The position numbers and the translations under genes are program-made. A stretch of 64,000 bases of DNA, taken from assembly GCA_025594325.1 (NCBI GenBank), contig JANHCV010000012.1, positions 1,178,001-1,242,000 on the forward strand. The letters run 5' to 3'. The notes beneath the pieces were generated by a model. The model was given only the letters and a program-made list of their open reading frames with translations, was not told the DNA's origin and made no database searches. Shown here piece by piece: positions 2,859 through 61,527 of this stretch. Positions within the stretch are counted from its first letter, which is position 1. Each line of letters opens with the position of its first letter. The DNA is from Blastocladiella emersonii ATCC 22665. Its lineage: Eukaryota > Fungi > Blastocladiomycota.

Positions 2859-3703
2859 GTTGCAAGCGCTGTCCGTTGCGATCGCCGCTAGAATCTGATG
2901 CGAGGCCATGCGTTAGTGCCAACGGGTTGTGGATAACGACACTAAAGAGAGCGTACCGCCAACGGGATCAAGGCAGAGACTTGGCTCGAGGGCCAAAGCG
3001 AAGCGGTAATTTCTTTTGTCCCACTGCTGAGCTGGAGTGCCGTTGCTGAGCAGGGCACGAATCAAGTACAGCGTGTGAGTGGAGGGGCGGATGGTCGCGT
3101 GAGGTTGGCGTTGAAGTACACGTACCGCTTCCACCATTGAACCTCAGCACCTTCAAACGCCTTGCCCTCGGCCACGTCAAGGCAGTAATTGACGCCGTTG
3201 TACTTGTGCATAATGCTGGCATGCGGTATAGGGTCGATCCAAAGGTTAGTTCGTCGCTGACTTGAGTCAGTTGGATAGAAGCCGTACGTTTGAGAACCGT
3301 GATTGCTGTAAATCTGGTGATTATGCGGGGAGTCTGCAAACCCTGGGTCGTTAAAGTAGCCCCACTGGTTTACGCACGCCCACATCTGCGCCTTGGCGGA
3401 CTGGCCATCTAACGCAAGCGTTGAGCGTCAGCAGTCTGCTCAGCCGCACCGGTAATGCGAGCGATCGAAAACGTACTCGCAGTGGCCTCTGAGAAGTCAA
3501 GGCAGCGGCCCGCGTTGTGCCGCCAGTCCTCAACGTGCGCCATTCCAAAGTTGTAGATCTGCCAACTAGCAAACGCAGCGGCGGTTCGTGAGCGAGGAGC
3601 ACACGAAACAGATGCCGCGCGGCGGAGCAGGCCCGTACGCGGTCGCGATCTGGGCGCCAAGGGCAAGGACCGCCACGAGGGCGAGGACAGGGTGTCGATA
3701 CAT
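2859..3703 (-). pseudogene. Secreted ricin-B lectin-like gene, multi-exon, cut off by the LTR
   Basis: Signal peptide MYRHPVLALVAVLALGAQIATA. Motifs GRCLDFSEATAS, AKAQMWAC, YCLDVAEGKAFEGAEVQWWK and NGQRLQL are shared with the paralogues at 52-57 kb. TATAAA lies about 80 nt upstream. Confidence 0.75.
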
Positions 3704-4043
3704 GGTCATGGTTGCGTCTGCTTCGAGGCGACGAGCGAGCGGACGGGCGGGAGCGAGGGTCGTGGGTGGGGGGCGATGCCAACTTTATACTCTCGCTCGT
3801 GGGCGTCGGGAGACGCCACCAACGAGAGCAGCTTGTGCGCTTTATGCAGAGACCCACATGGGCGCTCTATTCGTGCGCGTGCGCGCATGCAGGACTGAAG
3901 CACAAGGGCAAGGGCAAGCGCGCTGAGCCACGCACGTGCTGCTGACCGCGGGCGACGCCAAACGCGCTCAGCCAATCGCTGTCGTCTGCGCTCGGAACGC
4001 TCACGCTCTTCGCGCGCGCTATGAATCGCGTGAAACACTCCCC

Positions 4044-5095
4044 ATGAAGCAACCGGACTTGATGCAATCACTTTATGTGCTCCCTGAAACTGTCCTCGAG
4101 CGCGCGGTTGCGCTTGCGCGGGCGAGGTCGGCCATTGCGGTCGCGTGCAGCACGACGCGCGATGCCGCTCGCTCGCCTACTGTCCTGCGCGTCTGGGCGC
4201 ACCATGTCGCTCATAGCGTCACGTTCGAAGATTACGACGAAGGTCGAGACGCGCGCCTTGGCGTTCGACTTGACGACGAGTTTCCTGCTGCACGTCAGCT
4301 GCAGATGCCGTTCGTCTGGTACCTTAAGATGCGGCTCAAGGATGCTAAGCGAGGCGGTCTGCGTGTCCTGAACGACAGCAACGACTTGAGTGTCGAGCGG
4401 ACTCGCGTGCTGCACCCGTTCTCGCCGTCAGTCCTCGCGCACATTTACCGCCGCGCGCAGTCGCGACCCGCATCGCTTCTTGAAGCGTTTCGCCCTTTTG
4501 CCTATGCGATTCCAGGCACGCTTCACTCGTCGTGTGCGCTCCGCGCGGTGCCAGAGGGACTCTCGCTTCCTCACCTTTTCCTGCACGCCGGCAACGTCAA
4601 CGGCATGATTGCGTGTCTTGACTATCACGCAGCGCTGTTCCCCGGCTCGTTTCGCACCGAGCGTGCCTGTATCACCAACGTGTGGTCGAGGTTGTGATTG
4701 AGCGAGGATTTCTCGACACGCGCTGCTCTAGCATCAATATCGGCAGATCTTGTCAAGCAGGCTTGCGTTACGTACTCCATGGCGCTCGCGCTAGCGGCAA
4801 TGACCCTGTGGAATCTCGCCGCCGTCAAACGCATCCTCGACAGCGAGTATGGCGTTGACCGCAGCGACCTCATGGCCTTCTTCTCTCGGCCGCACGTCTC
4901 GAATGTCTTCCTTGACACAATGCAGTCTCATCCCCTTGCCACCGACGTTGTGCCCAACGCGATTGCGTGGCTACAGCAACAGGGCTGGCTGTACAGCAAC
5001 ATTGGCGTGCGCCTCTGCGGGTTTGCGACGCACAACCACAACCTTGCTCTCGCGCTACTGGACCGGTTCGACATGTCTACTATTCGCGCCATGAC
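4044..5095 (+). pseudogene. Host gene of unknown function (weak F-box-like N-terminus), 5' part, interrupted by the PLV
   Basis: One frame from ATG 4044 with an in-frame TGA at 4695-4697. It reads ...STIRAMT up to the TSD and resumes in frame after 21137. Confidence 0.65.
5091..5095. repeat. Left 5-bp target-site duplication ATGAC
   Basis: Identical ATGAC at 21138-21142, immediately outside the TG...CA termini. Confidence 0.9.
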
Positions 5096-5121
5096 TGCCG
5101 TATCCCTTAAGGGATACGGCA
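5096..5121. other. Perfect 26-bp terminal palindrome, left
   Basis: tgccgtatcccttaagggatacggca equals its own reverse complement. Confidence 0.98.
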
Positions 5122-5567
5122 TGGGCTGACCCACCACCACCCGGGCTGACCAATTGCTTACCCCAAGCGGTCGGCGGCAGTCACTCGGGCTAACCACATG
5201 ATTGGCAATGCGTTACCCCAAGTAATATATTGAGATTTGCCGAATGCCCCAGGGATACGGCATGGGGGCGGGTGGCAGGTGGGTCACGTGGATCATGTGC
5301 AGATGAACGGCGCGTGGGCACGGCTGCGAGTCGATCTGTGAGACAAGTCCAAGAGCAGATCCCTGAGCCCGTCCCTGACCAACCGCTCGGGCTGACCGTT
5401 GCTTACCCCGAGCGGTCGGCGGCGGCTGGCAAGCGCAGCGAGACGAAGAGCAGCGCAGCTGTGGCTACCCACTGACAGAGTTCCATGGTCTGGTCCCTGA
5501 CCTGACCCCCAAGCCCATCCCCAACCACCTGCCGCAAGCGGCTGCTATGAAGCCACTCACCGTAAAG

Positions 5568-5637
5568 GTTCCACTTTCATGGCATATTACGACAGAGTAT
5601 ATATATACACTACCCTTTTTTGCCATGAAAGTGGAAC
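5568..5637. promoter_or_regulatory. Candidate replication origin: 17-bp inverted repeats around a 36-bp spacer with a TATATATATA core
   Basis: gttccactttcatggca (5568-5584) and tgccatgaaagtggaac (5621-5637). Mirrored in the right TIR at about 20596-20665. The function is inferred. Confidence 0.45.
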
Positions 5638-5795
5638 TTTCAAAGACAAGAGGTCAGGGTATGGGGGGGAAGGTTGAGGACAAGGGAGCGTCTTAGCAGC
5701 ATCAATGTATTGGGCAGGACAGGGTCAGGCAAGGAGTGTCTTAGCAGGCAGCGTCTTAGCAGACAGGAAGGCAGCGTGGCAGGTCGTGGAGTGTC

Positions 5796-8700
5796 TTAGA
5801 GCTCGTTGTTGTCCTCGTTGTTGTCCTCGTCCTCGTCCATCTCCAGGACAAACGGGGCTGGATTGGCCAGGGGTGGGGTCCAGGTCTCGTACATGACAAA
5901 GTACAGAATGTCGTCTGTCCACTTCAGGTTACTGTACTTCTTGCCGCGTACTGAGACCCGGGGTTCGTCCTTGTCTGGCACAGCAAGGCACTTGTTAAAG
6001 TAAGTGCTGAGAAGTCTGTTTAGGACTGTTGCTGTGTCACACTTGTAATACCCAAGCTTCTTGAAGTACTTGTGGATGACTTCTTCAAACTTGGCGGGGA
6101 TGGTGGCCTGGATGTTGAACTCCTTGGACGTGTGGAGGTCCATGTTGTTGTGTTCCAGGAGCTTGTGCAGGACGTGGCCCTTGTCCTTGGTGTAAAAGTG
6201 CTGGATACGCTCCATGAAGCTCTCCGCGTTGTTGTCCCAGATGATCTTCATGTTGTCCATGCTCAGACCATTGAACTTGCGGATGAAGAAGGCCTTGCGG
6301 ACGGAGAGGGAGATGGTCCAGTCCGGGTCCTTGATGGTACCTTTGCAGTAGGCGCGCATGATCTCCTTGGACGGTAGCTGGACATTTGCCCATTCAAAAG
6401 ACCAGCCCAACATCATGACATCCTTAATCTCAGGGTGCGCCTTGTAGTAGTACTCGGGGGAGTCGTCCATGACAATGTTGGCGACCTTGCGGAAGGCGTC
6501 AAAGACCTTGAGGCAGAAGGTCACAGCGGCCATCTCGTTCTCAAGATCCGTGTTCTTGACAATAGCCCGGTGAAGTTTGCCAACCGAGTCCGAGTCAATG
6601 ACCTGTAACTTGTTCATGTACGCGCTGCGGCAACCATGGCTGATCATGAACACAATCTCGTTGTCAATGGGGTAGCGCTCGCGGTAGATTGCCTGGAAGA
6701 AGTTGCGGGCAGGGACCCAGGACTCGTAGCGCGCGTACACCTTGTGGAAGACGTATGGCTTCGAAAAGTTGACCCCCACAGTGATCTTGAGGTTGGCGAT
6801 GACTATACGGACCGTATCGTCGCCCCACACAGAGTCAGGGTCAATGAGTTCCTTGTCCTTGTGGTTGGGGCGGTCGCTGTGGTAGAGCTTGATCTGCTTG
6901 CCAATCTTCCACTTCTCCTTGGCAAAGACCAGCTCGAGGTACTTGCCAAAGGTCTGCACCGGCCACTTGGTTGACTTCTTGAATGGTCGTGGGATGAAGA
7001 GGTAGAGCTTCTTGTTGGCCTTGAGGTCGGCAATGATGTTGCTCTCCATGATGTCTTCGGCGGACTTCTCCTTGTCCTTGTTGTCGGTGATGAGGCTCAT
7101 CTTGCGCGGCTCAAACTTCTTGCCGAGCGTGTTCGTGATCACCTTGATCTTACCATGGAGTATGGTCTTGATGTTGTGCTCAACAGTAAAGGAGCGGAGG
7201 ACGTCCATGGTCAGGTTCGTGACAAACGCGTCCATGAAGATACCCTTGCTGCCCTTGTGCTCGCACAGCGTCTTGAAGGCCTTGAGGTTGGCCTCGAGGT
7301 TGTTGCGAATGGTGGTTGTGTGCAACTTGGCGTCCTGGAACATCTTGAGGACCGTCTTGGACTCGTCCACCACAACAATGTCGTAGGGCTCGGTCAAGTA
7401 GTGCAGCGAGCACGGCGAGACAATGAGTCGCTTGTGATCCCCCAGTGTCTTCTTGTCCTTGATGCTGCGGTAGTTGACAAAGCCAAGCTTCTGTTTGCGG
7501 GCTTGACCCTCAGTGTTGTGGGCCAGGGTGATGCGAGGTGTGATCCAGACCACTCGCGCGTCTGGGTACTTGGCAATGTAGTTGCAAACAGCGCCCGTCT
7601 TGTTGGAGCCCATGCCCATGGCCAGCACGTTGAACTTGGCCAGGGTAATGTCATCGCAGGACAGGAACTGGTTGGGGCTGGTCACGTCCACCAGTACCTC
7701 AAGCGACTGCTCAAACTTGGCCATGGCCTTGGACTTGAACGCGGCTGGGAACCGCTTGTAGAAGATGGCCTTGACAAACGTGTCCAGCACCTGGTAGTTG
7801 TTGTTGCTGGCAATCTTGTTCCATCGGCCCCAGTGCTTTTGCATGCGCTGAGCCGAGTTGTCCTGCTGCGACGTCCATGCCCAGAACTGGTCAAATGTGA
7901 CCCCTTTGCGCATGGCCCATGTCATGATCCGCCAGATCACGTTGTTGTGGAACGCGTTCTCGGGGCTGATGGGGATGTTGTGGAGGATCTCAAGTGGCGT
8001 GGCGTCGTAGTAGAAGAAGTCGGGGTCGATCTGCACGTCCTTGAACTCAGGGATGTCAAGGTCGTAGTCAAGGCGACCCGCGTGGCGCTTGGTCCGCGCT
8101 TCCTTGGCCTTGGCAGTCACAAACTCTTCAAAGGACAGGTCCGAGACCGACGCGCAGTTGGGGTCAAAGTCGCACTGGATCAAGTGCTTGGACAGGCGGT
8201 CCTTGTTACCCGAGATCCACACGCTGGGCGTCTTCTTGGGCTTGGACTGGTTGATGCACTTCATGAAGCAGTGCTTGCTGTACACGCTGGAGTCAAAGCC
8301 AAGCTTGACATGGTCGGGGTGGCTGCAGAACAGCTTCAGGAACGGCATGTCCTTGAGCGTGGCCGTGTAGTTGCTGAGGACAATGTGCCATGACTTTTTG
8401 AGGTCCGTCTCGTAGCTGCAGACCTGGAGGTTGGCGCCGGGGAACTGGGCCAGGATGACCTTCTTGATGACGTCCAGGGTCACGTCCTTGCGGTTGCCCG
8501 GGCAGTCAATGTCAAAGTAGACTTTGGACAGGCGCTCGGGGTGGACCATCTCCTGGATGCAGCGGTTCTTGTCGAGGAGCCCGGCCAGGTCAGCTGTCTT
8601 GACCTTGGCAAAGTAGTGCGCCGCCTTGGGTTGGCCGTGGTTGTTGACGCCCTTGTCAACAAGGCGCTTGATGACCGTCTTGTTGTCTTGCAGCTCGGAC

Positions 8701-8807
8701 AAGAGCGTGCGCTGAGGGCCCATGTTGCTGTTGCCACCATCCTTGCCATGGAACCACTTGAGACCAAAGGCGGTGCCATGTTTACTGGGAACCTGATTGC
8801 AGACCAT
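5796..8807 (-). CDS. AEP primase(-polymerase) / PriCT-like / UL9-like SF2 helicase fusion, about 1003 aa
   Basis: AEP motifs KVYFDID, KSWHIVL and FDSSVYS. Trp-rich PriCT-like segment. Helicase motifs AMGMGSNKT, WITPRITLA, VVVDES, FMDAF, ITVGVNF and FQAIYR. ATG 8807 chosen because the upstream part of the tracked ORF translates tandem repeats. Confidence 0.85.
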   Translation of the reverse strand: MVCNQVPSKHGTAFGLKWFHGKDGGNSNMGPQRTLLSELQDNKTVIKRLVDKGVNNHGQPKAAHYFAKVKTADLAGLLDKNRCIQEMVHPERLSKVYFDIDCPGNRKDVTLDVIKKVILAQFPGANLQVCSYETDLKKSWHIVLSNYTATLKDMPFLKLFCSHPDHVKLGFDSSVYSKHCFMKCINQSKPKKTPSVWISGNKDRLSKHLIQCDFDPNCASVSDLSFEEFVTAKAKEARTKRHAGRLDYDLDIPEFKDVQIDPDFFYYDATPLEILHNIPISPENAFHNNVIWRIMTWAMRKGVTFDQFWAWTSQQDNSAQRMQKHWGRWNKIASNNNYQVLDTFVKAIFYKRFPAAFKSKAMAKFEQSLEVLVDVTSPNQFLSCDDITLAKFNVLAMGMGSNKTGAVCNYIAKYPDARVVWITPRITLAHNTEGQARKQKLGFVNYRSIKDKKTLGDHKRLIVSPCSLHYLTEPYDIVVVDESKTVLKMFQDAKLHTTTIRNNLEANLKAFKTLCEHKGSKGIFMDAFVTNLTMDVLRSFTVEHNIKTILHGKIKVITNTLGKKFEPRKMSLITDNKDKEKSAEDIMESNIIADLKANKKLYLFIPRPFKKSTKWPVQTFGKYLELVFAKEKWKIGKQIKLYHSDRPNHKDKELIDPDSVWGDDTVRIVIANLKITVGVNFSKPYVFHKVYARYESWVPARNFFQAIYRERYPIDNEIVFMISHGCRSAYMNKLQVIDSDSVGKLHRAIVKNTDLENEMAAVTFCLKVFDAFRKVANIVMDDSPEYYYKAHPEIKDVMMLGWSFEWANVQLPSKEIMRAYCKGTIKDPDWTISLSVRKAFFIRKFNGLSMDNMKIIWDNNAESFMERIQHFYTKDKGHVLHKLLEHNNMDLHTSKEFNIQATIPAKFEEVIHKYFKKLGYYKCDTATVLNRLLSTYFNKCLAVPDKDEPRVSVRGKKYSNLKWTDDILYFVMYETWTPPLANPAPFVLEMDEDEDNNEDNNEL

Positions 8808-8906
8808 GTTGTTATGATGAGGTAACAGAAAGGGTGACAGGACAGGTGCGTTTAAACGCGCAGGATTTAGCGTTAATGACTGTGCCCTGGGAGCCCTTGT
8901 TGGCAT

Positions 8907-9044
8907 GGCCTGTCCTGTGCATTGTGTCGTTGGCCTGTCCTGTGCATTGTGTCGTTGTCCCGTCCTGGTTGGCCTGCCCTGTGCATCGTGTCCTTGTCCC
9001 GTCCTGTGCATCGTGTCCTTGTCCCGTCCTGTGCATCGTGTCCT
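8907..9044. repeat. About 25-bp tandem repeats upstream of the helicase gene
   Basis: About 5 copies of (ggcct/gtccc)gtcctgtgcat(t/c)gtgtc(g/c)tt. Confidence 0.85.
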
Positions 9045-9061
9045 GTGCAAGCTGGTCAAAG

Positions 9062-9379
9062 TCAATTGAGGGAGCACCCTTCTTCAAGGGGATGTCTGGC
9101 AGGAGCCGCTTCATTGACGTGCTGTTGTACAGCTGCTGTCTTCACAGGCGCCCCTTGGACGTGCTGCAACACTGCAAGACGGGCAATAACAACACGCAGC
9201 GTCTTCATGGCCTCTGCCAGAGACTTGTCATTGCCCAGCCATGCCTTGCGTGCAGCGTCCATGGTCAAGGCCTTCACCTTGTCAAAGTCAACCACCTTGC
9301 CTCTGCAGTAAGCAATGCTAAGCAGGAACTCATCAAGGGGGTTGGGGACATGGCTGTCGCTGTCACTGTCGTAGTACAT
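9062..9379 (-). CDS. Small hypothetical PLV protein, 105 aa
   Basis: ATG start and codon usage like the neighbouring viral genes. No motif. Confidence 0.55.
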   Translation of the reverse strand: MYYDSDSDSHVPNPLDEFLLSIAYCRGKVVDFDKVKALTMDAARKAWLGNDKSLAEAMKTLRVVIARLAVLQHVQGAPVKTAAVQQHVNEAAPARHPLEEGCSLN

Positions 9380-9467
9380 GGTGTCCTACCATTGACGCAC
9401 AATATATTTAACGATACCGCCAAACGCACTTGAGCAGTGACGCCTTCTTTTCTGGGGCTACCGTAAG

Positions 9468-10628
9468 ATGTCTCTCGAAGCACTCGTGTCCCAGGTGTCC
9501 AAGGTTGTTGCTCAGCATGTTGCCGCCAACGTAGTGCACCAAGTGCTTGATGGTATCAAGCCGCTGCTGGCGTCCTTTGATGAGCGGCTCAAGGGAGTCG
9601 AGACCAGCCTCGCCGCGCTGGCTGCAGTGTCACGTGACTGCAATCACAGTTCCAATCACACCCCCGCCAACGAGTCTGGCAAGCCCATGGACACTGATCC
9701 CCAGGTCAAGTACGCGCAGATGACCAAGGAATCCATCAAGGCGTGTGCCAGCGAGCCTGTGGTGAACAAGTACGGCCAAGTGTCCCAGCTCAGTGCCGAT
9801 GACCAGTCCAAGCTGTGTCACGTGCTGACTGCGTTCTGCAAGTCGGGGCTGGCCATTGAGGACGTCAACAGTGTGACAAAGGCTGTGGAGACGTACCGTG
9901 CAACCAAGGGCACAGACAAGGCACAGGGTCTGCAGGTTGAGACGCTCAAGGCGCTGGCCAAGTACTGCAAGTGGAATGGCAACAACGACCTTGCTGCACA
10001 GTACACGCAGGCCAAGAAGCAGGACGCTGAAGCTCACCTTGACGCGCGCAAGGCTGTGGAGACTGGTGCACTCCCAAGCCGTGAAGACTTGCTGGCTGCT
10101 GTTGTTGCTGCCAAGAACTGGGACACATACCAGGTGTCTGGCACAATGCGTGCTCTGCGTCTGTACCTCCAAGTCGTCTGTGCAAACTGCAGTGACCTTG
10201 CGTTCCTGACCACCAAGCCCAGTGACAAGTACCCAAGCTACAACCCCGAGACCAAGACGCTGGCCAGCCCTGTGTGCGTCAAGACAGATGGCCGTGGCTA
10301 CGGGTTCTCGCATGTCATTGCTGACCCCAAGGTTGCTGCTGCCCTTGAGCGCGTTATTGCCAAGCGTCTTGCTGATGGCCATGACCTGGTCTTCTACAAC
10401 CACAGCCTGGACAACGTCTGTGATGCTCTGGTCAACGCCAAGGTCCGCAAAGACTGGTCCAAGACCATTGCGCTGGCAGCACAGGACGTTGGCTTCAAGG
10501 GGTGCGGTGTCCAGCAGATCCGCCGCATCAGCACCAGTGAGAACAAGGACGCGTACGAGGCCGTGGCCAAGCATGCTGCTGAGATGGGTCACAGCGTACC
10601 TGTCGCCGTGGCCCACTACCTTGTCTGA
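9468..10628 (+). CDS. Tyrosine recombinase family protein, 386 aa
   Basis: C-terminal VKT ... QQIRRI ... AEMGHS ... HY fits the K, HxxR, H/W and Y catalytic positions. The first catalytic Arg is not evident (ANCSDL). Confidence 0.75.
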   Translation: MSLEALVSQVSKVVAQHVAANVVHQVLDGIKPLLASFDERLKGVETSLAALAAVSRDCNHSSNHTPANESGKPMDTDPQVKYAQMTKESIKACASEPVVNKYGQVSQLSADDQSKLCHVLTAFCKSGLAIEDVNSVTKAVETYRATKGTDKAQGLQVETLKALAKYCKWNGNNDLAAQYTQAKKQDAEAHLDARKAVETGALPSREDLLAAVVAAKNWDTYQVSGTMRALRLYLQVVCANCSDLAFLTTKPSDKYPSYNPETKTLASPVCVKTDGRGYGFSHVIADPKVAAALERVIAKRLADGHDLVFYNHSLDNVCDALVNAKVRKDWSKTIALAAQDVGFKGCGVQQIRRISTSENKDAYEAVAKHAAEMGHSVPVAVAHYLV

Positions 10629-10651
10629 CCTTGTTTTGTTGCCGTAATGTA

Positions 10652-11734
10652 ATGTATCCACACAAAGCACCACTCACAGACGCACAGCAAACGTTCCTCA
10701 GTGACCTGTACTACAAGCGCAGCCACGTAGGTGTTGGTATCTGTCGGCTCTTTGACATTGTGTCCAGAGAGAACACTGGTGACTGCGTGTACCGCGCACA
10801 GCTGGAGAGGTGGCTCAATGAGCAGTCGGTGTGGCAGTAGTACAAGCGTGCACCACAGAAGCGGCGCGACATCCGAAGCATCAACTCAACAAGCCCCAGT
10901 TGCAACTGGCAGCTGGACCTCATAGACATGGGCAAGAAAGGTACCTTCAACGGGTTCAGGTACATTCTTACCTGTGTAGACTTGGCAACTCGACGCGTGT
11001 TCCTGCGTCCAGTCAAGACCAAGGACCTGACACGGCAGGCATGGGACGACGTTGTCTCCAAGCATAACCTGACACCAGCAACCATCCAGACAGACAATGG
11101 CACAGAGTTCAATGGCATTGAAGCGGGGACAGGCGCAAAGCACATCAAAGGCAAGGCAGGTGTGCCATACAGTCAAGGTGTTGTTGAGCGTATGAACGGG
11201 ACCATTCGCAGGATGCTGACACCGTGGCTGTCCATTGAAGGCAACAACAACTGGCCAAAGTACCTTGAGACCATAGAGTCCGTGATCAACAGCAGCAAGT
11301 CCAGAGCTACAGGCAAGGCGCCCAATGACTTCCATGACATGCTGCGAGACGCTGCCAAGGACACACTCAAGGCCATCTGTGCTGCCAAGGGCAAGCCAGA
11401 GGGTGACCCACTCAGTGCGCTGCTCAAAGTTGGAACACAGGTACGTGTCCGTGAGCCGTACAAGACAGCCATGGAAGCAAAGGGAAAGCCAGTATGGACG
11501 TCCACAGTGCACCAAGTCACAGCTGTCCGCAAGGGCTCTGGTGTGAGCAACCCGTTGTACAAGGTTGGTGACTTGAAGGGCTTCTATCCACGCAGCGACG
11601 TCCAGCCAGTCACAGCGACCCAGGACCCGCCAAAAAGGCAGCGCGTAGGTCCAAGTCTTCCAAGGCTCCCTGCTGCGCGCACCCCAGTCACGCCAAGGGA
11701 GCCCTTGACCCGGGTCAGGCGCGTCCCAGTCTGA
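10652..11734 (+). pseudogene. Retroviral-type (rve) DDE integrase with an in-frame TAG at 10838-10840
   Basis: The frame is continuous across the stop: LSDLYY...WLNEQSVWQ*YKR...WQLDLIDM...IQTDNGTEF...QGVVERMNGTIR, then an SH3-like KVGTQVRV...W...YKV tail typical of Polinton/virophage integrases. Confidence 0.9.
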
Positions 11735-11760
11735 GTCCAAGAAAAGTGGGACCGCGGGCT

Positions 11761-13701
11761 TTAGAGCAGGGTCCAGTGGCTTTGAATGATGACCTGGCAG
11801 TCGTTGGCAACTGCGACTGACGGGATCCAGATGAAAGAGTAGCTCTTGGCCGCATCAAGGTACTCAATGCTCGAGAACTGAAGGAACTGGATGTTGCCTT
11901 CAGCGCGGCACCCGGTGACAAGCAACACTGCAATCATGCCCATCATATTGTACAACGCAAAGTTCACAGTGTGGGCTCCAGGGAGCGTGCCGTTTGCGTA
12001 ATAGCCCTTTGCATGGACGAGGTAGTAGCCACTGACAGGGGGTTTGACGCATCCATTGATCACAGACGTGAACGCGCCCGCCGTGGACTGGAATGCAAAG
12101 GTGGCCGGGCCCGTTGATGCTGTGCCGCCAATGATCTTGCCGCCTGTGGTCACTCCGTTTGTAGAGCGGTGCTTGGCCTGAGCGACATACCGGGTCGTGC
12201 CAGACCGCGAGTCAACGTACGCCTTGTTTGCCGCGTCGGTGCCTGCCACTGGAGCGAGGTCAAGGGTGAGCTGCCCTGTGAAGCGACCAGTGCCATTGAC
12301 GCGGAACCTTTCTGTGCCAAGCGTTGCCGAGCCCACGACCACATTGCTGCCACCTGCCACAAGGGAGACCCCGCCCGTGGTCGCAGACGCAATCTCAATG
12401 TTACCCGCTGCTGTGCATGCCAGGTTGCTTCGCAGTACGCCTGCCTGCTTAAAGTCGACGTACGTCAATGTATTGGCAGCCGAGTCAAAGACAAGGTTCG
12501 CGCTTGTGGCATTCCGGACCAGGACGTTGGGCACAGTGAGCTGCTTGCCCACACCAAGGCCACCTGCCACAGTGACTGCCCCAGTGGACGTCAATGTGCT
12601 GTCCACAGTACTGGCAAATGTAAAGACACTGCCAAGTCCAAGGGTGGACTGGGGGAGCGTCCCAGTGACAATGGCTCCGTTGACACTTGACACCTTGCTG
12701 GACATGTCAGGCAGTTGTGCAAGGTCAATGGTCCCAGACAACTTGGCAGCGTCTATCCCAGTGGCCAGCTTGGCATTGGTCAGTGAACCGTCTGCAATGC
12801 GTGCAGGGTCAAGCGTCCCTGTCAGCTTGGTGGCAGACACATCTGTGACCTTGGCGTTGGTGACTGACCCTGCTGCAAGGTGTGCTGTTCCCACGGATGA
12901 CACGTTGAGCTTTGCACCGTCTATACCAATGGCCAGCTTGGCGTTGGTGACAGCAGCGTCTGCAAGGGCAGCTGTGCTGACAGTCCCTGGAACCAGCTTG
13001 GACCTGGACACTGAGGCAACCTTGACATCTGTTATTGCAGTGTCTGCAAGTGCTGCTGTGCTGACAGTCCCTGGAACCAGCTTGGACCCGGACACTGAGG
13101 CAACCTTGGCGTCTGTCACTGAGGCGTCTGCAAGAGCAGGTGTTGAGACACTTCCTGCAACCAGCTTGGACCCAGACACTGAGACAACCTTGGCGTCTGT
13201 CACGGAGGTGTCTGCAAGAGCTGCTGTGTTGACAGTCCCCAGAACCAGCTTGGACCCGGACACTGAGGCAACCTTGGCGTCTGTCACAGAGCCATCTGCA
13301 ATGGACGTTGTCCCAAGCACAGGAAGGCTGGATGCACTGAGCACACCAGTGACCTTGGATGCTGACACAGTGTCCAGCTGTGCATCAACAAGCTTACCTG
13401 TGACCTGTGCAGCTGTGACACTCACAACCTTGTCTGCAGTGATGCTGGCTGGCAGGAGCTGGGCCATACTGATTGACTTGACATAGAGACTGCTTGGACC
13501 AACACCCAGTGTCTGGTCATCGACCTTGGCAGAGACAGTTGTCCCTGACACACTGAGTCCAGGCCCAGCGACAGGTGCACCAACTGTGGCATAGACAGCA
13601 CTGATGGCAGCATCAACATATGCCTTGGACACGCCTGAGACACCTGTGGCCGACACTGTTGGTGACACGTTGGTAGACACGTTGAATATATTCTTGACCA
13701 T
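11761..13701 (-). CDS. Fibre/spike-like virion protein with 28-aa repeats, about 646 aa
   Basis: Two KAYVD motifs and repeats of VSGSKLVxGTVSTAALADxSVTDAKVAS (84-bp period at about 12990-13300), with a beta-rich C-terminal domain. ATG 13701 has the shared upstream motif. Confidence 0.7.
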   Translation of the reverse strand: MVKNIFNVSTNVSPTVSATGVSGVSKAYVDAAISAVYATVGAPVAGPGLSVSGTTVSAKVDDQTLGVGPSSLYVKSISMAQLLPASITADKVVSVTAAQVTGKLVDAQLDTVSASKVTGVLSASSLPVLGTTSIADGSVTDAKVASVSGSKLVLGTVNTAALADTSVTDAKVVSVSGSKLVAGSVSTPALADASVTDAKVASVSGSKLVPGTVSTAALADTAITDVKVASVSRSKLVPGTVSTAALADAAVTNAKLAIGIDGAKLNVSSVGTAHLAAGSVTNAKVTDVSATKLTGTLDPARIADGSLTNAKLATGIDAAKLSGTIDLAQLPDMSSKVSSVNGAIVTGTLPQSTLGLGSVFTFASTVDSTLTSTGAVTVAGGLGVGKQLTVPNVLVRNATSANLVFDSAANTLTYVDFKQAGVLRSNLACTAAGNIEIASATTGGVSLVAGGSNVVVGSATLGTERFRVNGTGRFTGQLTLDLAPVAGTDAANKAYVDSRSGTTRYVAQAKHRSTNGVTTGGKIIGGTASTGPATFAFQSTAGAFTSVINGCVKPPVSGYYLVHAKGYYANGTLPGAHTVNFALYNMMGMIAVLLVTGCRAEGNIQFLQFSSIEYLDAAKSYSFIWIPSVAVANDCQVIIQSHWTLL

Positions 13702-13744
13702 GTTTAACTTAGTGCAAGAAACGAATTGCTCAGAGTACCAGGAC

Positions 13745-14017
13745 ATGTCCCTTGATGAGTGGCATGAACACCTTGCAGGGACCTTCCCTGTGCCATCCAA
13801 CTGGTACAACAAGAGCAACAAGGACAAGGCCAAGTGGCTACAGAAGAGAGACCGCAAGGCCAGTCGCTTTGTCCACGTTGACAGTGAGGCAGCATGGGCA
13901 GAGCGCGTCAAGATCCGCATCTACAAGGCACTCAACGCCAAGCGCAATGCACAACGTACAAAGTGTACCCTTGACGGTACAAAGTGTACCACAGACAGGT
14001 GCAAAGTGTACCCTTGA
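13745..14017 (+). CDS. Small basic hypothetical protein, about 90 aa
   Basis: MSLDEWHEHLAGTF..., divergent from the fibre gene. Its tail runs into a repeat array. Confidence 0.5.
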   Translation: MSLDEWHEHLAGTFPVPSNWYNKSNKDKAKWLQKRDRKASRFVHVDSEAAWAERVKIRIYKALNAKRNAQRTKCTLDGTKCTTDRCKVYP

Positions 14018-14054
14018 CGGTACAAAGTGTACCACGGACAGGTGCAAAGTGTAC
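13956..14054. repeat. Five phased copies of the dyad GT(A/G)CA-AAG-TGTAC
   Basis: Starts at 13956, 13977, 13999, 14020 and 14042, spaced 21, 22, 21 and 22 bp. Confidence 0.9.
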
Positions 14055-14093
14055 CTTGCCCGGGGTTTATTTTCGCTTCATACAGTAACCACC

Positions 14094-14702
14094 ATGACAC
14101 AAAGACCCATCACCAAGCAACTGGAAGACGTTGCAGCCAAGACAAACAGTCGTATCACTGCAGAGCGCATGCCTGGCCAGAGGATCAAGGCCACCATTGA
14201 TGGACGCGTGTACACTTTCCCCACAGCCAAGGAGTTCCTCACTGTGTGGGTCCTGTACATCCTTGCCTTTGACTACGCTGTCACACCAGAGAGCTATGCA
14301 GACGACTTTGAGGGCAAGCAATCAGGGATGCTGTTCCTGAGACACAATGGAGAGATCATGGGGCAAGACTCAGAGAGCGTCATGCAGCACATCTATGACA
14401 CCATCAAACAAGCAAGCACAAGCGTTAGCAGTGGCATCCAACGTGTTCCTGTTGCACAGGAAGGCACACCAGACTCTGACACAGGCGCAGACACACCAGA
14501 CGTCCCAAGCACACAAGACTCTGGCATAGGCTCACAGAGGCCACAGGACACCTTGGACAAACTTGCTGAGATGCTGGGAGAGCAGGGCAGCGTGTGCCTG
14601 ACCATCTCTTGCCCGTACCTGTCCGCCCAGTTGTCCCTGAAGAGTACCCTGTGGACGCTGGTGACTACGTTGGCCAGGACATCCCAGAGTACGCTGGCAT
14701 GA
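14094..14702 (+). CDS. Hypothetical PLV protein; possibly the 5' part of a frameshifted gene running to 15811
   Basis: ATG 14094 has the shared upstream motif. Its TGA overlaps the next ATG (ATGA, 14699-14702). Confidence 0.6.
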   Translation: MTQRPITKQLEDVAAKTNSRITAERMPGQRIKATIDGRVYTFPTAKEFLTVWVLYILAFDYAVTPESYADDFEGKQSGMLFLRHNGEIMGQDSESVMQHIYDTIKQASTSVSSGIQRVPVAQEGTPDSDTGADTPDVPSTQDSGIGSQRPQDTLDKLAEMLGEQGSVCLTISCPYLSAQLSLKSTLWTLVTTLARTSQSTLA

Positions 14703-15811
14703 TCCCTGGACGTTACTTGATCCAGAATGACAACAATGGCGGCAATGACCTTCCACCCCGGCTCGACGACGGCACACGCGACCTGGTTGTTGTCCCTCCC
14801 AGCTATGGACAGGACCTTCCACAGCGCGGCTCTGTGTACAATGACACACACGTACATCCCACCATGGACAAGTCTCGGATGATTGAAGGCTCCAAAGACA
14901 TCCAGGTCTGCAACCCAGAGCGGGCACTGACCACGACAGATGACATGGAGGTTGACATTGTCCAGAACTTTCAGCAGTTCAATCAATACGTGTACAGCAG
15001 CTTCCAGCAGGACAACACGCAGAACTACGACATGCGGCAGTTCATCACCCAGTACAAGAACAACTACTACGAGCAGAACGTGGACATGCAGCAGCAGATC
15101 CTGGTGCAGTACAACAGCGACCCCAACGTGATGGCTGCGCTGGACATCATTGCTGGCCAGTTCGCAAACAGTCAGGTCATGCAGTACCAGGCGTACATGG
15201 CCCTGATTAAGCAGTCCAAGAACGCCCAAGGACTGGCACTTGAGACCTTTGCCAACCTTGCAGCTAACATTGTGGACACACTGCGTGCAGAGCGCAACGC
15301 CTTTGTGTGACAGATTGATGCAGGGAACCGTGCACTGGTGTCTGAGATTGCAAGCGGCATGTCAACTGCCCTGACCAACCAGCAGGGACTCATTGGACAG
15401 CTTGCAACAGGTGTCCAGAGCGCCATCCAGGGACAGACAGAGTCCAATGCTGCTGTGAACAAGACACTCCAGGACCTGGGCAGCAAGCTGGACACAATGC
15501 AGCCGCCAGCACAGCCACAGGTCCTGGACACCAGCAACCTGGAGCAGCTCATCCGACAGCTTGCAGACGCGCCCAAGAACAATTCCGAGGGTAGTAGTAA
15601 GAAGACAGAGATGTTACTCGAACAGATCCTCAAGCGACTGGGCTACAAGAAGCCCCTGGACGCGAAGCTGTTCACAGAGAAGACGTCGGCCGGCAGTGGC
15701 CTGACAGCACCCCAGATCAAGCGTCACCAGAAGCTCCCTGAGCGACCAGTCAAGCAAGTGCGCAAAGTCCCCAAGCGCAGTGGCATTGTCACTGACCTTG
15801 GATGGGCGTGA
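14594..15811 (+). pseudogene. Q/N-rich hypothetical PLV protein with an in-frame TGA at 15308-15310
   Basis: ORFs 14594-15310 and 15338-15811 share a frame and read on (ERNAFV*QIDAGNRALVSE). A CGA>TGA change would explain the stop. Confidence 0.65.
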
Positions 15812-15836
15812 ACCTTTTGTCTTGGGTTACAGTAAG

Positions 15837-16637
15837 ATGTACGACATTGTGGCCATTGACAACGGCTTCACCAGGAACAACAACAACCAGCCTTTGCCCA
15901 TCCCCAAGCACCCCTTCACCATGAACGTCATTGGCGCCAAGGGTCAGGGCAAGTCAACACTGATCGCCAACCTTGTGTGCTTCCCGCAGTTCTACAAGGG
16001 ACGCTTTGACAACATCTGGGTCTTCAACCCCACCTTCCACGCTGACGACAAGTACGAGTACATTGCCTCACAGGCGATCCTGCAACCACCCAAGAAGCAG
16101 CACAATGTACTTGATCCACAGGAGCACAACCCAAACCGGCTCAAGGTGAAGCCATCGTGCATTGTCACGGACCCAGAGCTGTTCATCCCCACGCTGCTCA
16201 AGATGCGCAAAGACCTGACCAAGACCTTTGAAGACCAGGGCAAGAAGGCACTGCAGGACCAGCTGCTGATCATTGACGACGTGCTGGGCCTCAAGCTGCT
16301 GTCCCACAAGACGCTGACCAACTTCCTGTGCAACTCGCGACACCTCAAGAACAGCTGCATCATTGGCGTGCAGCGCTGGTGTGCTCTGCCCAAGACACTG
16401 CGCATCAACTGCAGCTACAGCGTTGTGCACCCCATCTACAACAAGACAGAGGTCAAGACACTGCACAAGGAGATTGGGTCGCAGTTTTCGCTCAAGGAGT
16501 TTGAGGTGATCATTGAACAGCTCTTTGACACCCGCTCAGAGGGCAACACCAAGCGACGCTTCCTTGGTGTCAACAACCAGAACAGTCCCAAGTACAGGCT
16601 GGTAGACAGCTTCAGCGAGTGGATCATCAAGGACTAA
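15837..16637 (+). CDS. A32/FtsK-HerA-type DNA packaging ATPase, 266 aa
   Basis: Walker A GAKGQGKST, Walker B LLIIDD, then NSRH and IIGVQ motifs. Directly upstream of the capsid gene. Confidence 0.92.
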   Translation: MYDIVAIDNGFTRNNNNQPLPIPKHPFTMNVIGAKGQGKSTLIANLVCFPQFYKGRFDNIWVFNPTFHADDKYEYIASQAILQPPKKQHNVLDPQEHNPNRLKVKPSCIVTDPELFIPTLLKMRKDLTKTFEDQGKKALQDQLLIIDDVLGLKLLSHKTLTNFLCNSRHLKNSCIIGVQRWCALPKTLRINCSYSVVHPIYNKTEVKTLHKEIGSQFSLKEFEVIIEQLFDTRSEGNTKRRFLGVNNQNSPKYRLVDSFSEWIIKD

Positions 16638-16680
16638 GCAACGCAGCGATTTTTTTTCTTGTGCTTCAGTAACACACGCC

Positions 16681-17901
16681 ATGTCTTCCACCAATGCCCA
16701 GTTCTCCCAGGTCCTGTCAAAGACTCTGCCACCAGAGATGACGTTTAACCTGCCCAAGGAGTCTGTGTACGCCGAGCGTCAGACTGTCCAGTTCACTGCA
16801 CAGGGCGGCCCCGAGTTTGCACCTGGCAACACTATCAGTGTCCTCCTGCCCCCGCACAACAACATGATGGACACCCACTGCACGTTCCTGCAGTTCAGTG
16901 CCAAGACTGCAGACGCCAACGTCACCTTCTGTGATGGCATCTTCAGCATCATTGACTGTGTGCGAGTCTACAGCGCGGGTGGAGCCCTGCTGGAAGAGCT
17001 TCCCTACTACAACCTGCATCAGCGCATTGAGGCTGACGTGACTGTCCCGCAGCACCTCAAGGACTCATGCCTCGGCGTGGCCCAGGGTTACTTTGCCACT
17101 GGGGCTGACCGCTTTGCTGTGTCATCTGGACTTCACCGGTACATGCTGCCCATCAAGTCTGCACTGCTGTCCAACCAGAAGCATCTGCCCATGAAGTACC
17201 TTGGTGGTATCCGCGTCGAGTTCACCCTGGCTCCTGGTGCAGATGCCTGTGTGGTCAAGAACAATGCCATCCCAAGCTACAGTGTCAAGGACGTGTGCAT
17301 TGTGTCTGACCTGATCAAGCTCAATGACCAGCAGATCGCCGTCATGGACGCTGCCTTCAAGAAGCAGGGTCTCAAGCTCTACGGCACAACGTACAACCAC
17401 CACTTCCTCAACTACTTGGTGCCCAACTCTACGCTCAACGTCTCTGACCGCAGTGCGTCACAAAAGGACGTGCTGGTGTCGTTCTGCAACAACGCAGTCC
17501 TCAATGACAATGCCAAGGACTTGTTCCTCCGTGCCAAGACCATTGCAACGTACCAGTTCAGCATTAGTGGCCGTCTCTTCCCCCAGAAGCCTGTCCGCTG
17601 TGACGACTACGCTTCAGAGGTCTTTGTAGAGCTGTCCAACGCCTTCCATGGCCATGTCATTGGTGCAGGCATGTCAGTGGACAAGTACAATGCGCCAGCT
17701 GAGGGGACCTTCTGCATTGGCCGCAACCTTGAGTCATCCCATACCATTGTCAGCGGCGACAAGTCTTGCAAGAGCCAGGCCGTGGACATGCAGATCATCC
17801 TCACCTCAAACACTGTCCCAAACCAGCGTGTTGACGCCTTTGTTGGTGTTGACATTGTGTACAAGTTCCTCCCAACTGGCAAGGTCAACCTCTACAAGTA
17901 A
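16681..17901 (+). CDS. Major capsid protein (double jelly-roll, PLV type), 406 aa
   Basis: Beta-rich pattern EFAPGNTISVLLP...D...FLQF...GIFSIIDCVRV...GGALLEELPYYNL and YQFSISGRLFPQKPV. Size and position between the ATPase and minor capsid fit. Confidence 0.85.
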   Translation: MSSTNAQFSQVLSKTLPPEMTFNLPKESVYAERQTVQFTAQGGPEFAPGNTISVLLPPHNNMMDTHCTFLQFSAKTADANVTFCDGIFSIIDCVRVYSAGGALLEELPYYNLHQRIEADVTVPQHLKDSCLGVAQGYFATGADRFAVSSGLHRYMLPIKSALLSNQKHLPMKYLGGIRVEFTLAPGADACVVKNNAIPSYSVKDVCIVSDLIKLNDQQIAVMDAAFKKQGLKLYGTTYNHHFLNYLVPNSTLNVSDRSASQKDVLVSFCNNAVLNDNAKDLFLRAKTIATYQFSISGRLFPQKPVRCDDYASEVFVELSNAFHGHVIGAGMSVDKYNAPAEGTFCIGRNLESSHTIVSGDKSCKSQAVDMQIILTSNTVPNQRVDAFVGVDIVYKFLPTGKVNLYK

Positions 17902-17940
17902 GCCCCGCGTGCATTCTTTTCTTGCGTACAGTTAAACGCA

Positions 17941-18207
17941 ATGATCTTCAGGAACCTGTGGACCAACTTCAGCAACGTGCTTGGCCAGGTAGGCGGCTTC
18001 GTGAACAAGCATCTCCCCACCGTGCTCAAGGGAGTCAAGACCGTGTCCAAGTTCTTTGAGCGCTCGCACAACCCTGCCGTGTCGTCTGTGGCACAGCTTG
18101 TGTCCAAGGGCGCTGACCTGGCCCAGGACATCCACACATGGTACAACCAGCCAACAAGCGAGATCTTTGAGACAGACAACAACGACACAGGCAGGGCAGT
18201 GCAATAA
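17941..18207 (+). CDS. Small protein with an N-terminal amphipathic helix (adenovirus protein VI-like candidate), 88 aa
   Basis: MIFRNLWTNFSNVLGQVGGFVNKHLPTVLKGVKTVSKFF, lying between the capsid genes. Confidence 0.65.
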   Translation: MIFRNLWTNFSNVLGQVGGFVNKHLPTVLKGVKTVSKFFERSHNPAVSSVAQLVSKGADLAQDIHTWYNQPTSEIFETDNNDTGRAVQ

Positions 18208-18228
18208 TATCTTCTAAGCCTTACTTAA

Positions 18229-18975
18229 ATGACTGGCTCCTACAAGACACTGACCATCTGCAGCCGCGACCTCAAGAACAGTGTGCTGTACCTCCTGCGG
18301 GCCGTGTCTGTGAGCGGCATCAAGGTCAACTCGGCGTACCTATGCAACAGCTGGCACACGGTCAACTCCAAGGCCAACAAGGTGTACCTGACACAGAGCC
18401 GTGGCAGTGTGACCTTCCCAGGGACCATCACTGTCCCTGATGGCAACTACACAGTTGAGACGTTCACGTCAACGCTCAAGAGCCTGCTCAACAACGCGCC
18501 GTCAAGTCTTCTGTGGCAGGGCACATGGGACGTGCAGGTTGACTCCACCACACAGAAGATGCGCATTGCCAATGACACCTGCGACTTCACTGTTGGGACA
18601 GGGGCCGCTGCGCTGAACACGCACATGGGCTTTGTTGGCAGCTACGGCTACAGCAAGGTCCAGTACGGGACGTCTCTGGTGAACATCTCTCCCATCAACC
18701 TGCTGCATGTGTACTCGCGCAACCTGGGCAGCCGCCTTGCGGACAACATGTTCTCGGCGTACCTGCAGGACAATGGTGTGCTGTGCAGCATCCATGTCAC
18801 ACAGCCGTTTGGGAGCTGGTTCGAGCACCGTCCACACATGAGCAACTACTTTCGCTTTGACGCACGAGGCACACCGCAGCTGATAGACTCCATTGACGTT
18901 GACGTGGTGGACAAGAACCTGCGCTCTGTTGACTTCCTGGGGCAACCCTTCTACATTGAGCTCGCGTTCATCTGA
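18229..18975 (+). CDS. Minor capsid (penton-like, single jelly-roll) protein, 248 aa
   Basis: LTICSRD...SAYLCNSWHTVNS...ITVPDGNYT...LKSLLN and a C-terminal IDSIDVDVVDKNLRSVDFLG...IELAF match the PLV minor capsid pattern. Confidence 0.8.
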   Translation: MTGSYKTLTICSRDLKNSVLYLLRAVSVSGIKVNSAYLCNSWHTVNSKANKVYLTQSRGSVTFPGTITVPDGNYTVETFTSTLKSLLNNAPSSLLWQGTWDVQVDSTTQKMRIANDTCDFTVGTGAAALNTHMGFVGSYGYSKVQYGTSLVNISPINLLHVYSRNLGSRLADNMFSAYLQDNGVLCSIHVTQPFGSWFEHRPHMSNYFRFDARGTPQLIDSIDVDVVDKNLRSVDFLGQPFYIELAFI

Positions 18976-19005
18976 GCTGCGACTTTTTTGCTGTGTACAT
19001 GTAAG

Positions 19006-19116
19006 ATGATCCTTGAGACACTTGTCCTTGCAGCCAACGTGGTCATCCTCGTGGCCAACCTTGCCATCATCAGGTACACCTCCAGCGCGCTCAAAGATAT
19101 TTGCGTTGTAGACTAA
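19006..19116 (+). CDS. 36-aa hydrophobic peptide with a single TM helix
   Basis: MILETLVLAANVVILVANLAIIRYTSSALKDICVVD, preceded by the tttt-N11-gtaagATG motif. Too short for the ORF track. Confidence 0.55.
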   Translation: MILETLVLAANVVILVANLAIIRYTSSALKDICVVD

Positions 19117-19172
19117 GCAACGCGTCAGCACAATGTGTTTATTTTCCCAACAACGTAGTAAGAGACAACACC

Positions 19173-19319
19173 ATGAACCAGGCTACTGGCTGCACTTTGT
19201 CACCACCCCATACACCTTCTCCAACCACACCAGGGCCAAAGTCCCTGAGCCAGTACACGGCCATCCGAGACGCAAGTCCACCCGGCGTCAAAGTTGTGTA
19301 CACCGTGCGCTTTGAGTAA
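19173..19319 (+). CDS. 48-aa Pro/Thr-rich peptide
   Basis: ATG preceded by the shared motif (tttt-N12-gtaag). No homology recognised. Confidence 0.4.
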   Translation: MNQATGCTLSPPHTPSPTTPGPKSLSQYTAIRDASPPGVKVVYTVRFE

Positions 19320-19794
19320 GCGCCCCTTCAAGTTAACAGTGAATGCTACCTTGAAGACTGAAGACCAAAGACTTAGTAGTTGTTACGGTGGTAAGTGTAC
19401 GTGTGATGACAGCATGAGTAAACTACCGTGGCCAGCAGGAGCCGGTTGTCATAGACCCACCAAGGTGGCTCCAAGTGGTTGCATGGCAGTTGAGGCAGGG
19501 GAGTGATGTCAAGGATGCAGCCGCGCATGGGTTACTGAAGGCTCAGAGAAGAAGCCAAAGACTTGTGCGTTGAACGCGCTTCCATCATCACCACCAAACA
19601 GTCCATGGCAACTGGTCACGTGACCACAGCCCCCCGCAATGACATAACGTAGCAATGGGTGCTCCGCCCCCATCCAGGAGCTGCTGGCCAGGCAGCCCCC
19701 AGACTGCCCCACACTGGAGTCTCCTTTCATGGTGGCCAACCACTAATCGGAGTTCCAGTGTGGAGCAGGGCATCATTGCCAAGTACTCATCAAC

Positions 19795-19978
19795 CACACA
19801 GTACACCGGCACAGACCAAAGCTCATCGACCACACAGTACACCGGCACACCAGGACACCAGGACACCAGGACACCAGGACACCAACACACCAGGACACCA
19901 GGACACCAACACACCAGGACACCAGGACACCAACACACCAGGACACCAGCACAGACCAAAGCTCATTGACCACACAGC
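19795..19978. repeat. 8-bp (caggacac/caacacac)n array flanked by about 28-bp direct repeats
   Basis: cacagaccaaagctcat(c/t)gaccacacag on both sides of the array. Confidence 0.9.
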
Positions 19979-20418
19979 GCCAACAGGATAAAGGAAGAAA
20001 GGTCCATGGTGCAACTGCACGGGTAGCAAGTCTGCGCAGCGCTCCATGTCCTGACACAAGCAACCGAGTCTATTGCCGTGCACAGCAGATAGCCCTGTAC
20101 GTCTTGTGCCGTACACTTTGACCACCCACAACGTTGGCCATGACACCCATACCAAAGGTCCTGTGAGTGCGTTGGGCTCATTGCAGCAAGATGGCCTATA
20201 CGCGCTCCAGCAGGGGCTTGAGGCAGTGAATCTGTGTCATGGCTTCCGTTGTGGGTGGTGGAGAGCAGGTCTGGGGAGGGGGGCGGTGGGGGGTTCTTAT
20301 AGGGCAAGGGATAGCGCTAATTCCCCAGCCACACGGTTGGTCAGTTCACCAGCCACGCGGCTCACTGGGCAAGCTGGACAACCACCCCGCAGCAGTCCCC
20401 AACCTTTGTCCTCGAGCT

Positions 20419-21137
20419 GGACAACGACGAGCTCTAAGACACTCCACGACCTGCCACGCTGCCTTCCTGTCTGCTAAGACGCTGCCTGCTAAGACGCTCC
20501 TTGCCTGACCCTGTCCTGCCCAATACATTGATGCTGCTAAGACGCTCCCTTGTCCTCGACCTTCCCCCCCGTACCCTGACCTCTTGTCTTTGAAAGTTCC
20601 ACTTTCATGGCAAAAAAGGGTAGTGTATATATATACTCTGTCATAATATGCCATGAAAGTGGAACCTTTACGGTGAGTGGCTTCATAGCAGCCGCTTGCG
20701 GCAGGTGGTTGGGGATGGGCTTGGGGGTCAGGTCAGGGACCAGACCATGGAACTCTGTCAGTGGGTAGCCGCAGCTGCGCTGCTCTTCGTCTCGCTGCGC
20801 TTGCCAGCCGCCGCCGACCGCTCGGGGTAAGCAATGGTCAGCCCGAGCGGTTGGTCAGGGACGGGCTCAGGGATCTGCTCTTGGACTTGTCTCGCAGATT
20901 GACTCGCAGCCGTGCCCACGCGCCATTCATCTGCACATGATCCATGTGACCCACCTGCCACCCGCCCCTGTGCCGTATCCCTGGGGCATTCGGCAAATCT
21001 CAATATATTACTTGGGGTAACGCATTGCCGATCACGTGGTTAGCCCGAGTGACTGCCGCTGACCGCTTGGGGTAAGCAATTGGTCAGCCCGGGTGGTGGT
21101 GGGTCAGCCCATGCCGTATCCCTTAAGGGATACGGCA
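20419..21137 (-). repeat. Right terminal inverted repeat (719 bp), ending in the 26-bp palindrome at 21112-21137
   Basis: Reverse complement of 5096-5814. Confidence 0.97.
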
Positions 21138-55608: not shown

Positions 55609-55990
55609 CAGCGCGTGTTGCAGCGTGCCCTTTGCACATCCTTGTCCTTGATTTCTATTTGCATATACTTTCGTTTGGTTTCGTTACGGCATCTCGGTTC
55701 GCGCTCGTAGTTCCGGCGGAGGTGACCGAGAAGTGTGGCGCAACGCGTGCACCCGCGCTTGACGTCACTGGGCGCCGCCCACGTGTGTGGCTCAGCTGCC
55801 GACTTGCCTCTTCCATCCTTTGCGCGCGCGCGACTGCCCACGGCGCCCATGTGGGCCTCGAACAACGGCCTGTGCCGCCCGAGTTTGCATAGGCGTTGCG
55901 AGTCGCCCCGGCGTATAAAGGTGGCACTCGCCCCCGCTGCAGTTCCGCTCTCACTCGTGTTGTTAACGGATCATAGCACTCAAAGCAACC

Positions 55991-61350: not shown

Positions 61351-61527
61351 GCACGGGTACGCGCATCACCTCCACCTCGCTCATGGTGGCTTGTGGTGCT
61401 CCGTGGTTGCAGAGTGTGCTCACCGCCTCACCTCGCCTAGTTCCGCTCCCGTGGGCAGCGCGCGGCTCGCGCACGCGCAGCGCACCTCACTGCCGCGCCG
61501 CGCCGCGCGCCCGCCCGCGTCCGAATA

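Follow-up and report, generated by a model that had tools for sequence, protein, structure and literature searches.

Identical terminal palindromes in a Polinton-like provirus without detected pPolB: possible opened-out hairpin ends

The provirus and its genes

Here, we describe a Polinton-like provirus of 16,042 bp in the window, by which we mean the whole stretch of 64,000 nucleotides that was analysed. Its boundaries can be read directly: terminal inverted repeats (TIRs) of 719 bp with TG...CA ends are enclosed by a 5-bp target-site duplication (TSD), and a host ORF of 197 codons, split by the insertion, reopens once the element and one TSD are taken out. The features are, in order of position:

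5091 to 5095, no strand: left target-site duplication, ATGAC
5096 to 5814, forward strand: left TIR, 719 bp, 16 mismatches against the right TIR
5096 to 5121, no strand: left terminal perfect palindrome, 26 bp, 13-bp arms, centre TT/AA, begins TG
5251 to 5262, forward strand: internal 12-bp copy of the inner palindrome arm, AGGGATACGGCA, one per TIR
5565 to 5640 and 20593 to 20668, no strand: second, imperfect palindrome with an AT-rich core, one per TIR
5796 to 9011, reverse strand: replication protein, a UL9-like (Herpes_ori_bp) SF2 helicase of 1,071 aa, with PriCT-2 look-alikes
9468 to 10628, forward strand: tyrosine recombinase (YR), open frame
10652 to 11734, forward strand: rve (DDE) integrase, one in-frame stop at codon 63
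11761 to 13920, reverse strand: fibre-like repeat protein (Phage_Tail_Tip, E 4e-5)
15837 to 16637, forward strand: A32-like packaging ATPase (Pox_A32, E 1e-11)
16681 to 17901, forward strand: putative major capsid protein, from its size, position and family size
18229 to 18975, forward strand: putative minor capsid protein, from its position only, no family match
20419 to 21137, reverse strand: right TIR, holding the arm copy at 20971-20981 and the AT-cored palindrome at 20593-20668
21112 to 21137, no strand: right terminal perfect palindrome, 26 bp, ends CA
21138 to 21142, no strand: right target-site duplication, ATGAC

Polinton-like viruses (PLVs) have been defined as elements of 14-40 kb with TIRs of hundreds of bp, an integration gene and a short TSD (PMC12220804; this and the other sources given by number are cited from the available part of their text). 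The size, TIRs, rve integrase and TSD of the present element fall within this definition, and it encodes the A32-like packaging ATPase of such viruses. The putative major capsid protein, which has no Pfam or PHROG name, belongs with 1,409 relatives at E<=0.001, likewise unnamed. For capsid and YR alike, the closest relatives are proteins annotated in Blastocladiella emersonii; one capsid cluster has 26 members, and the capsid clusters together hold about 38 sequences. With canonical Polintons/Mavericks the element shares long TIRs, the rve integrase, a short TSD, the A32-like ATPase and the putative capsid genes, while differing in its TG...CA ends with a terminal palindrome, its extra YR, and the lack of a detected protein-primed polymerase (pPolB). 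The absence of pPolB had been claimed in the initial annotation of this DNA and agrees with our scan, which covered 15 of the 49 listed ORFs and gave no match to a PolB family.

The UL9-like helicase is encoded by the one long ORF for replication in the element. Its look-alikes come mostly from Preplasmiviricota; in the top cluster 70% of the members carry Herpes_ori_bp (Atlas score 0.99), and PriCT_2 is present too. The protein itself gave no informative Pfam match, and AEP primase motifs, read by eye, make it a putative primase.

The present copy is probably inactive, because the integrase has its stop at codon 63 and the YR has a Cys in place of the first catalytic Arg. The integrase residues D89, D148 and E179 lie in the open 3' part, after the stop. 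Within 10916-11190 the second Asp and the Glu are 31 residues apart, the usual spacing in such integrases being 35, and a 4-aa gap relative to P0017 is common to two sister proteins. All 16 mismatches between the TIRs are transitions of the CpG-decay type: 14 fall within a CpG that has survived, and the remaining pair represents both decay products of a single CpG. The ratio of observed to expected CpG is 0.6 in the element (5096-21137) as opposed to 1.2-1.3 in the flanks, which suggests that its low CpG content is likely the result of methylation-driven decay after insertion. We also noted tandem arrays of 8-bp units at 19811-19977, near the right TIR, and of 25-bp units at 8881-9058, upstream of the helicase.

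Terminal palindromes and sister copies

As the initial annotation had stated, both ends of the element carry the same perfect 26-bp palindrome, TGCCGTATCCCTTAAGGGATACGGCA, at 5096-5121 and 21112-21137, with zero mismatches between the two. Every other perfect palindrome in the window has 18 bp or less, and about 0.001 palindromes of the 26-bp kind are expected by chance per 64 kb; as both terminal palindromes belong to one TIR pair, they count as a single observation. The core, CTTAAG, is 6 bp long and perfectly symmetric. The perfection of the palindrome does not point to selection: given the rate at which CpGs decay in the TIR, its four CpGs would all stay intact with p about 0.49. An assembly artefact at the junction was ruled out: a run contig spans the left junction without difference, and the right flank is also present.

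The recurrence of the 11-bp arm inside the TIR at 5252-5262, likewise claimed before, is exact and has a mirror copy at 20971-20981, so that together with both arms at each end the window holds six exact matches. With up to one mismatch there are 7 matches against 0.77 expected, a number reached in 0 of 100 shuffles. The internal copy is a single arm and not a palindrome, and may be a protein-binding repeat. No solo palindrome, that is, one outside the element ends, occurs within the 64-kb window, the exact palindrome is absent from IMG/VR, and an Rfam search gave no match. At the boundary between palindrome and TIR body (5118-5125; mirror 21108-21115) both strands read CA/TG, and thus the TIR body has canonical integrase TG...CA ends of its own.

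The second palindrome consists of two arms of ~18-21 bp around a TATATATATA core, with a predicted fold of -19.4 kcal/mol, and sister variants at 5587-5592 (in contigs of the run X4) sit in its loop. We consider the 5565-5640 copy a candidate replication origin; its position beside a UL9-like helicase is reminiscent of the herpesvirus oriS.

Sister ends were read through contigs of four sequencing runs from one sample, and since this sample is possibly the window's own source, the contigs are not independent. In run X1, 24 contigs lie on 5076-5165, and three of the 8 listed have foreign flanks joined at the outer arm; run X4 adds a fourth foreign flank, along with the present element's own right flank. 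The initial annotation had raised the possibility that sister copies lack the outer arm, which is not so: all four other flanks are directly seen to join it, at 5090, 5095 and 5099 (X1) and 5100 (X4). Two of the four have TGT for TGC at the tip of the outer arm, their inner arms lying outside the readable sequence. Summed contig depth steps up by ~2,350-2,690 at 5096, as compared with 143-183 for single-copy contigs, and this suggests ~13-19 ends in the sample (a dozen or more identical), an estimate from summed contig depth and not a copy number.

Strand-switch (fold-back) joints were absent from the X1 and X4 contigs, data hardly able to show one, and no compensatory change was readable in X1 or found at 5096-5121 among the 40 shown of 122 differences in X4. 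Copies without the palindrome, expected as loose ends at 5122, were not listed in X1, where short junction contigs may be missed. A loose end at 6367 in X4 has letters resembling a loxP adaptor and is probably a library artefact. Viral and metagenome scans by major capsid protein, ATPase or YR yielded no related loci. The integrase scan yielded 37 distant loci, none of which shares the helicase, YR, ATPase or capsid genes (tblastn); nor does a palindrome extend to the outermost bases of any of them, a lack that is uninformative because most of these loci hold at most one contig end.

Tyrosine recombinase and junction geometry

The R-K-R-H-Y catalytic residues of tyrosine recombinases are complete in six of six YR relatives, at 53-96% identity, and the present copy has lost the first Arg (Cys241) and kept K272, R352, H375 and Y384. 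The Arg-His spacing is 23 in 7/7 YRs, equal to that of Cre, versus 28-33 in 5/5 phage protelomerases (28 in TelA), a range that is a trait of the set compared rather than a proven protelomerase requirement. The Arg-Lys and Lys-Arg spacings, 31 and 80, equal those of TelA (residue numbers from PMC3558466).

Two AlphaFold models of the YR are poor (mean pLDDT 50 and 57), and Foldseek returned only non-significant rows for them (E>0.03), with Cre, TelA and Xer among these. In a wide structural search (VIA) an archaeal Xer came out on top (Z 9.7, rmsd 16.9, 164 aa), and none of the best 50 rows, obtained with these weak models, is a protelomerase. The predicted N-terminal domain matched the core-binding domains of XerD (Z 7.5, rmsd 2.8, 81 aa) and lambda Int (Z 7.2, rmsd 2.9, 89 aa), scores in a range that may be common for helical proteins. 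Profile comparison with hhalign gave probabilities of 0.2% against protelomerases and 0.3% against a Cre-like set, so that neither control set was matched, and there was no informative Pfam, PHROG, PDB-sequence or phage match. The protelomerase role that had been suggested for the YR is unsupported, given an N-terminal model, albeit weak, that best fits Xer and lambda Int and the Arg-His spacing. From its sequence and models, the YR looks Xer/lambda-like rather than protelomerase-like, and it could still work like a protelomerase. It is the only encoded candidate for an enzyme that would regenerate hairpins, a role we regard as possible but less likely than not. The minimal TelA site is 26 bp, a figure that we keep out of the argument.

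How might an integrase have produced the observed junction? The initial annotation had proposed a nick at GGCA/TGGG as the source of the palindrome and TSD, and by computation a hairpin with tip TT/AA nicked there, 13 nt from the tip, does reproduce the junction exactly. The route is not unique, however, as an identical junction results if a replicated head-to-head junction (same strand) is cut at its far CA, and again from a nick at CCCA/TGCC with subsequent unfolding and fill-in to a blunt end. Both of these routes use the TIR as donor, as is usual for DDE integrases. In addition, HIV-1 integrase is reported to cut inside a palindrome formed by two joined ends (PMC1905944). For these two reasons we favour integration of an opened duplex over that of a nicked closed hairpin, the sequence being compatible with all three routes.

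Proposed hairpin ends and alternative readings

We propose, with about even confidence for and against, that the palindromes are the opened-out hairpin ends of the free genome, integrated as an opened duplex. The end would fold back at TT/AA into a 13-bp hairpin. The viral primase-helicase and a borrowed polymerase would then replicate from an internal origin (the candidate at 5565-5640) through the hairpin, the product being either a head-to-head junction or, if a nick at CCCA/TGCC and fill-in follow, a blunt full palindrome. Finally, the rve integrase would use the far CA of the opened duplex, with the TIR as donor, and leave the 5-bp TSD. Hairpin ends would likely let the free genome copy its tips without a protein primer.

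Several observations support this reading. At each end the palindrome forms the very tip of the element, and it is far beyond chance; the outer arm is joined to four further flanks, with a step up in depth at 5096; and a UL9-like helicase stands in for pPolB among the ORFs scanned. The pairing of a TSD-adjacent palindrome with a non-pPolB replicase is also reported in five Halocafeteria subtypes (bioRxiv 10.64898/2026.07.28.741278), the core has the perfect symmetry of replicated telomeres, whereas recombinase sites need an asymmetric core (PMC12270096), internal cutting of a palindromic junction is on record for HIV-1 integrase (PMC1905944), and all three computed routes reproduce the junction. 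On the other side, one ancestral accident could explain all copies, as they come from one sample and share descent, and the element has its own (putative) primase and so need not use a hairpin as primer. The contigs show no strand-switch joint, no readable compensatory change and TGT in two of the four flanks, and the viral and metagenome scans gave no relative with readable ends. The earlier suggestion of hairpin ends with the tip at TT/AA holds as the best reading, while the fold-back joints and compensatory changes that it called for were not seen in the contigs.

The ends can also be explained without any hairpin role, the palindrome being a doubled binding site of the integrase or helicase, or an ancestral fold-back accident copied ever since. 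This we judge unlikely. The arm does recur inside the TIR, as binding sites do, and the perfection of the palindrome is expected without selection; accidental annealing is itself offered as an alternative in the Halocafeteria preprint (bioRxiv 10.64898/2026.07.28.741278). Against it, the internal copy is only one arm, and terminal palindromes recur in unrelated hosts, preferentially in elements without pPolB (bioRxiv 10.64898/2026.07.28.741278).

Two further readings give the YR the leading part. It could be a telomere resolvase that makes closed hairpins and might release the provirus in a single step, the integrase nicking the closed hairpin 13 nt from its tip, a reading that we think distinctly unlikely. 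The computed geometry is exact, and since the rve integrase accounts for the TSD, no integration task remains for the YR, although the six relatives have retained one with its motif complete. Nevertheless, the nicked closed hairpin makes the 13-bp stem the donor and the genome the flank, the reverse of the usual DDE geometry. The Arg-His spacing of 23 and the best structural matches (Xer, the XerD core-binding domain and lambda Int) also speak against a resolvase, whereas the TelA-like Arg-Lys and Lys-Arg spacings and the presence of TelA among the non-significant Foldseek rows speak for one. Literature sources add to its favour: protelomerases make a staggered cut of 6 bp, which fits the symmetric core CTTAAG of that length (PMC3558466), a handful of mutations is enough to convert TelA from one activity to the other, resolvase or recombinase (PMC12270096), YRs go with AEP/PolA replicases (10.64898/2026.10.13.758929), and free-standing rve plus YR is rare, being found in 12 of 8,300 elements of a cryptophyte survey and always via retrotransposon insertions (PMC12220804). 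A variant in which an Xer-type YR turned telomere resolvase would free a hairpin-ended linear genome from both palindromes, for the DDE integrase to reinsert at the CA beside the hairpin, seems to us rather unlikely. Alternatively, the palindrome could be a conventional YR recombination site, crossing of the ends excising a circle with one palindrome and leaving another between the TSDs. The Xer/lambda-like architecture and Cre-like C-terminal spacing of the YR would fit, and YR-bearing PLVs are thought to circularise (10.64898/2026.10.13.758929, PMC12220804), but such recombinases take their direction from an asymmetric spacer (PMC12270096), which is lacking here, the arms of the site are only 10 bp if the core is 6 bp, and the window has no solo palindrome; we consider this improbable to much the same degree as closed-hairpin nicking. 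With its symmetry, the core is a better fit for hairpin formation than for recombination with a direction (PMC12270096).

Returning to opened-out hairpin ends, the general idea is already in a preprint of July 2026, which proposes hairpin priming or accident for TSD-adjacent palindromes found in five Halocafeteria subtypes, preferentially without pPolB (bioRxiv 10.64898/2026.07.28.741278), and the present element is a new, likely fungal, case of the kind described there. As in the virophages (subtypes 1, 2, 5 and 6) and PLV subtype 4 of the protist Halocafeteria seosinensis, a palindrome at the TIR tip adjoins the TSD and goes together with a non-pPolB replication gene and an rve integrase. 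The differences are a host that is likely an aquatic fungus, a UL9-like helicase and a palindrome of 26 bp compared with 52 nt in subtype 5. In the available text of that preprint, rve and YR occur together in some virophages and not in PLVs, and telomere resolution is not proposed. The 13-bp arm lies below its 20-bp screen, and as this is the one paper found, such ends may be commoner than reported.

Protelomerase systems (N15 TelN, phiKO2 TelK, Agrobacterium TelA, Borrelia ResT) share with the present element a symmetric palindrome with a 6-bp core, here CTTAAG (compare PMC3558466, PMC12270096), and YR catalytic residues encoded nearby. The present case differs in the Xer/lambda-like features of its YR, its Arg-His spacing of 23 and integration by a DDE enzyme. 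The end modules of entomopoxvirus-associated PLVs have a primase-helicase between inverted repeat and YR, in the same order as here, and dimer resolution by the YR at poxvirus hairpin ends has been suggested; no terminal palindrome or rve integrase is described in the available text (PMC11296320). Elsewhere, the link of YRs to AEP/PolA replicases is called elusive in its reason (10.64898/2026.10.13.758929), PLV ATPases are noted in chytrids with no mention of palindromes in the available text (10.64898/2026.06.19.733378), and the available parts of PMC13533422 and 10.1101/2025.10.09.676808 add little. In the literature searched, whose coverage stops short of most subscription journals, we found no paper on Blastocladiella Polintons or on a protelomerase together with Polintons, and on terminal palindromes with Polintons only bioRxiv 10.64898/2026.07.28.741278; the term 'telomere resolvase' was absent among the matches listed.

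The finding bears on how Polinton-like viruses without pPolB copy their ends and leave the host chromosome, and the family of the element combines ends that are short and exact with numerous sister copies in a single fungal genome and with sister YRs whose active site is intact. If the YR did act as a resolvase alongside the integrase, this would explain both the excision of such viruses and the role of the YR that travels with AEP replicases.

Elsewhere in the window, 36-bp inverted repeats 237 bp apart at 61522-61830 are MITE-like, and three tandem copies of a ~2-kb gene lie at 52278-57190, with an inverted relative at 3016-3887, near the window start.
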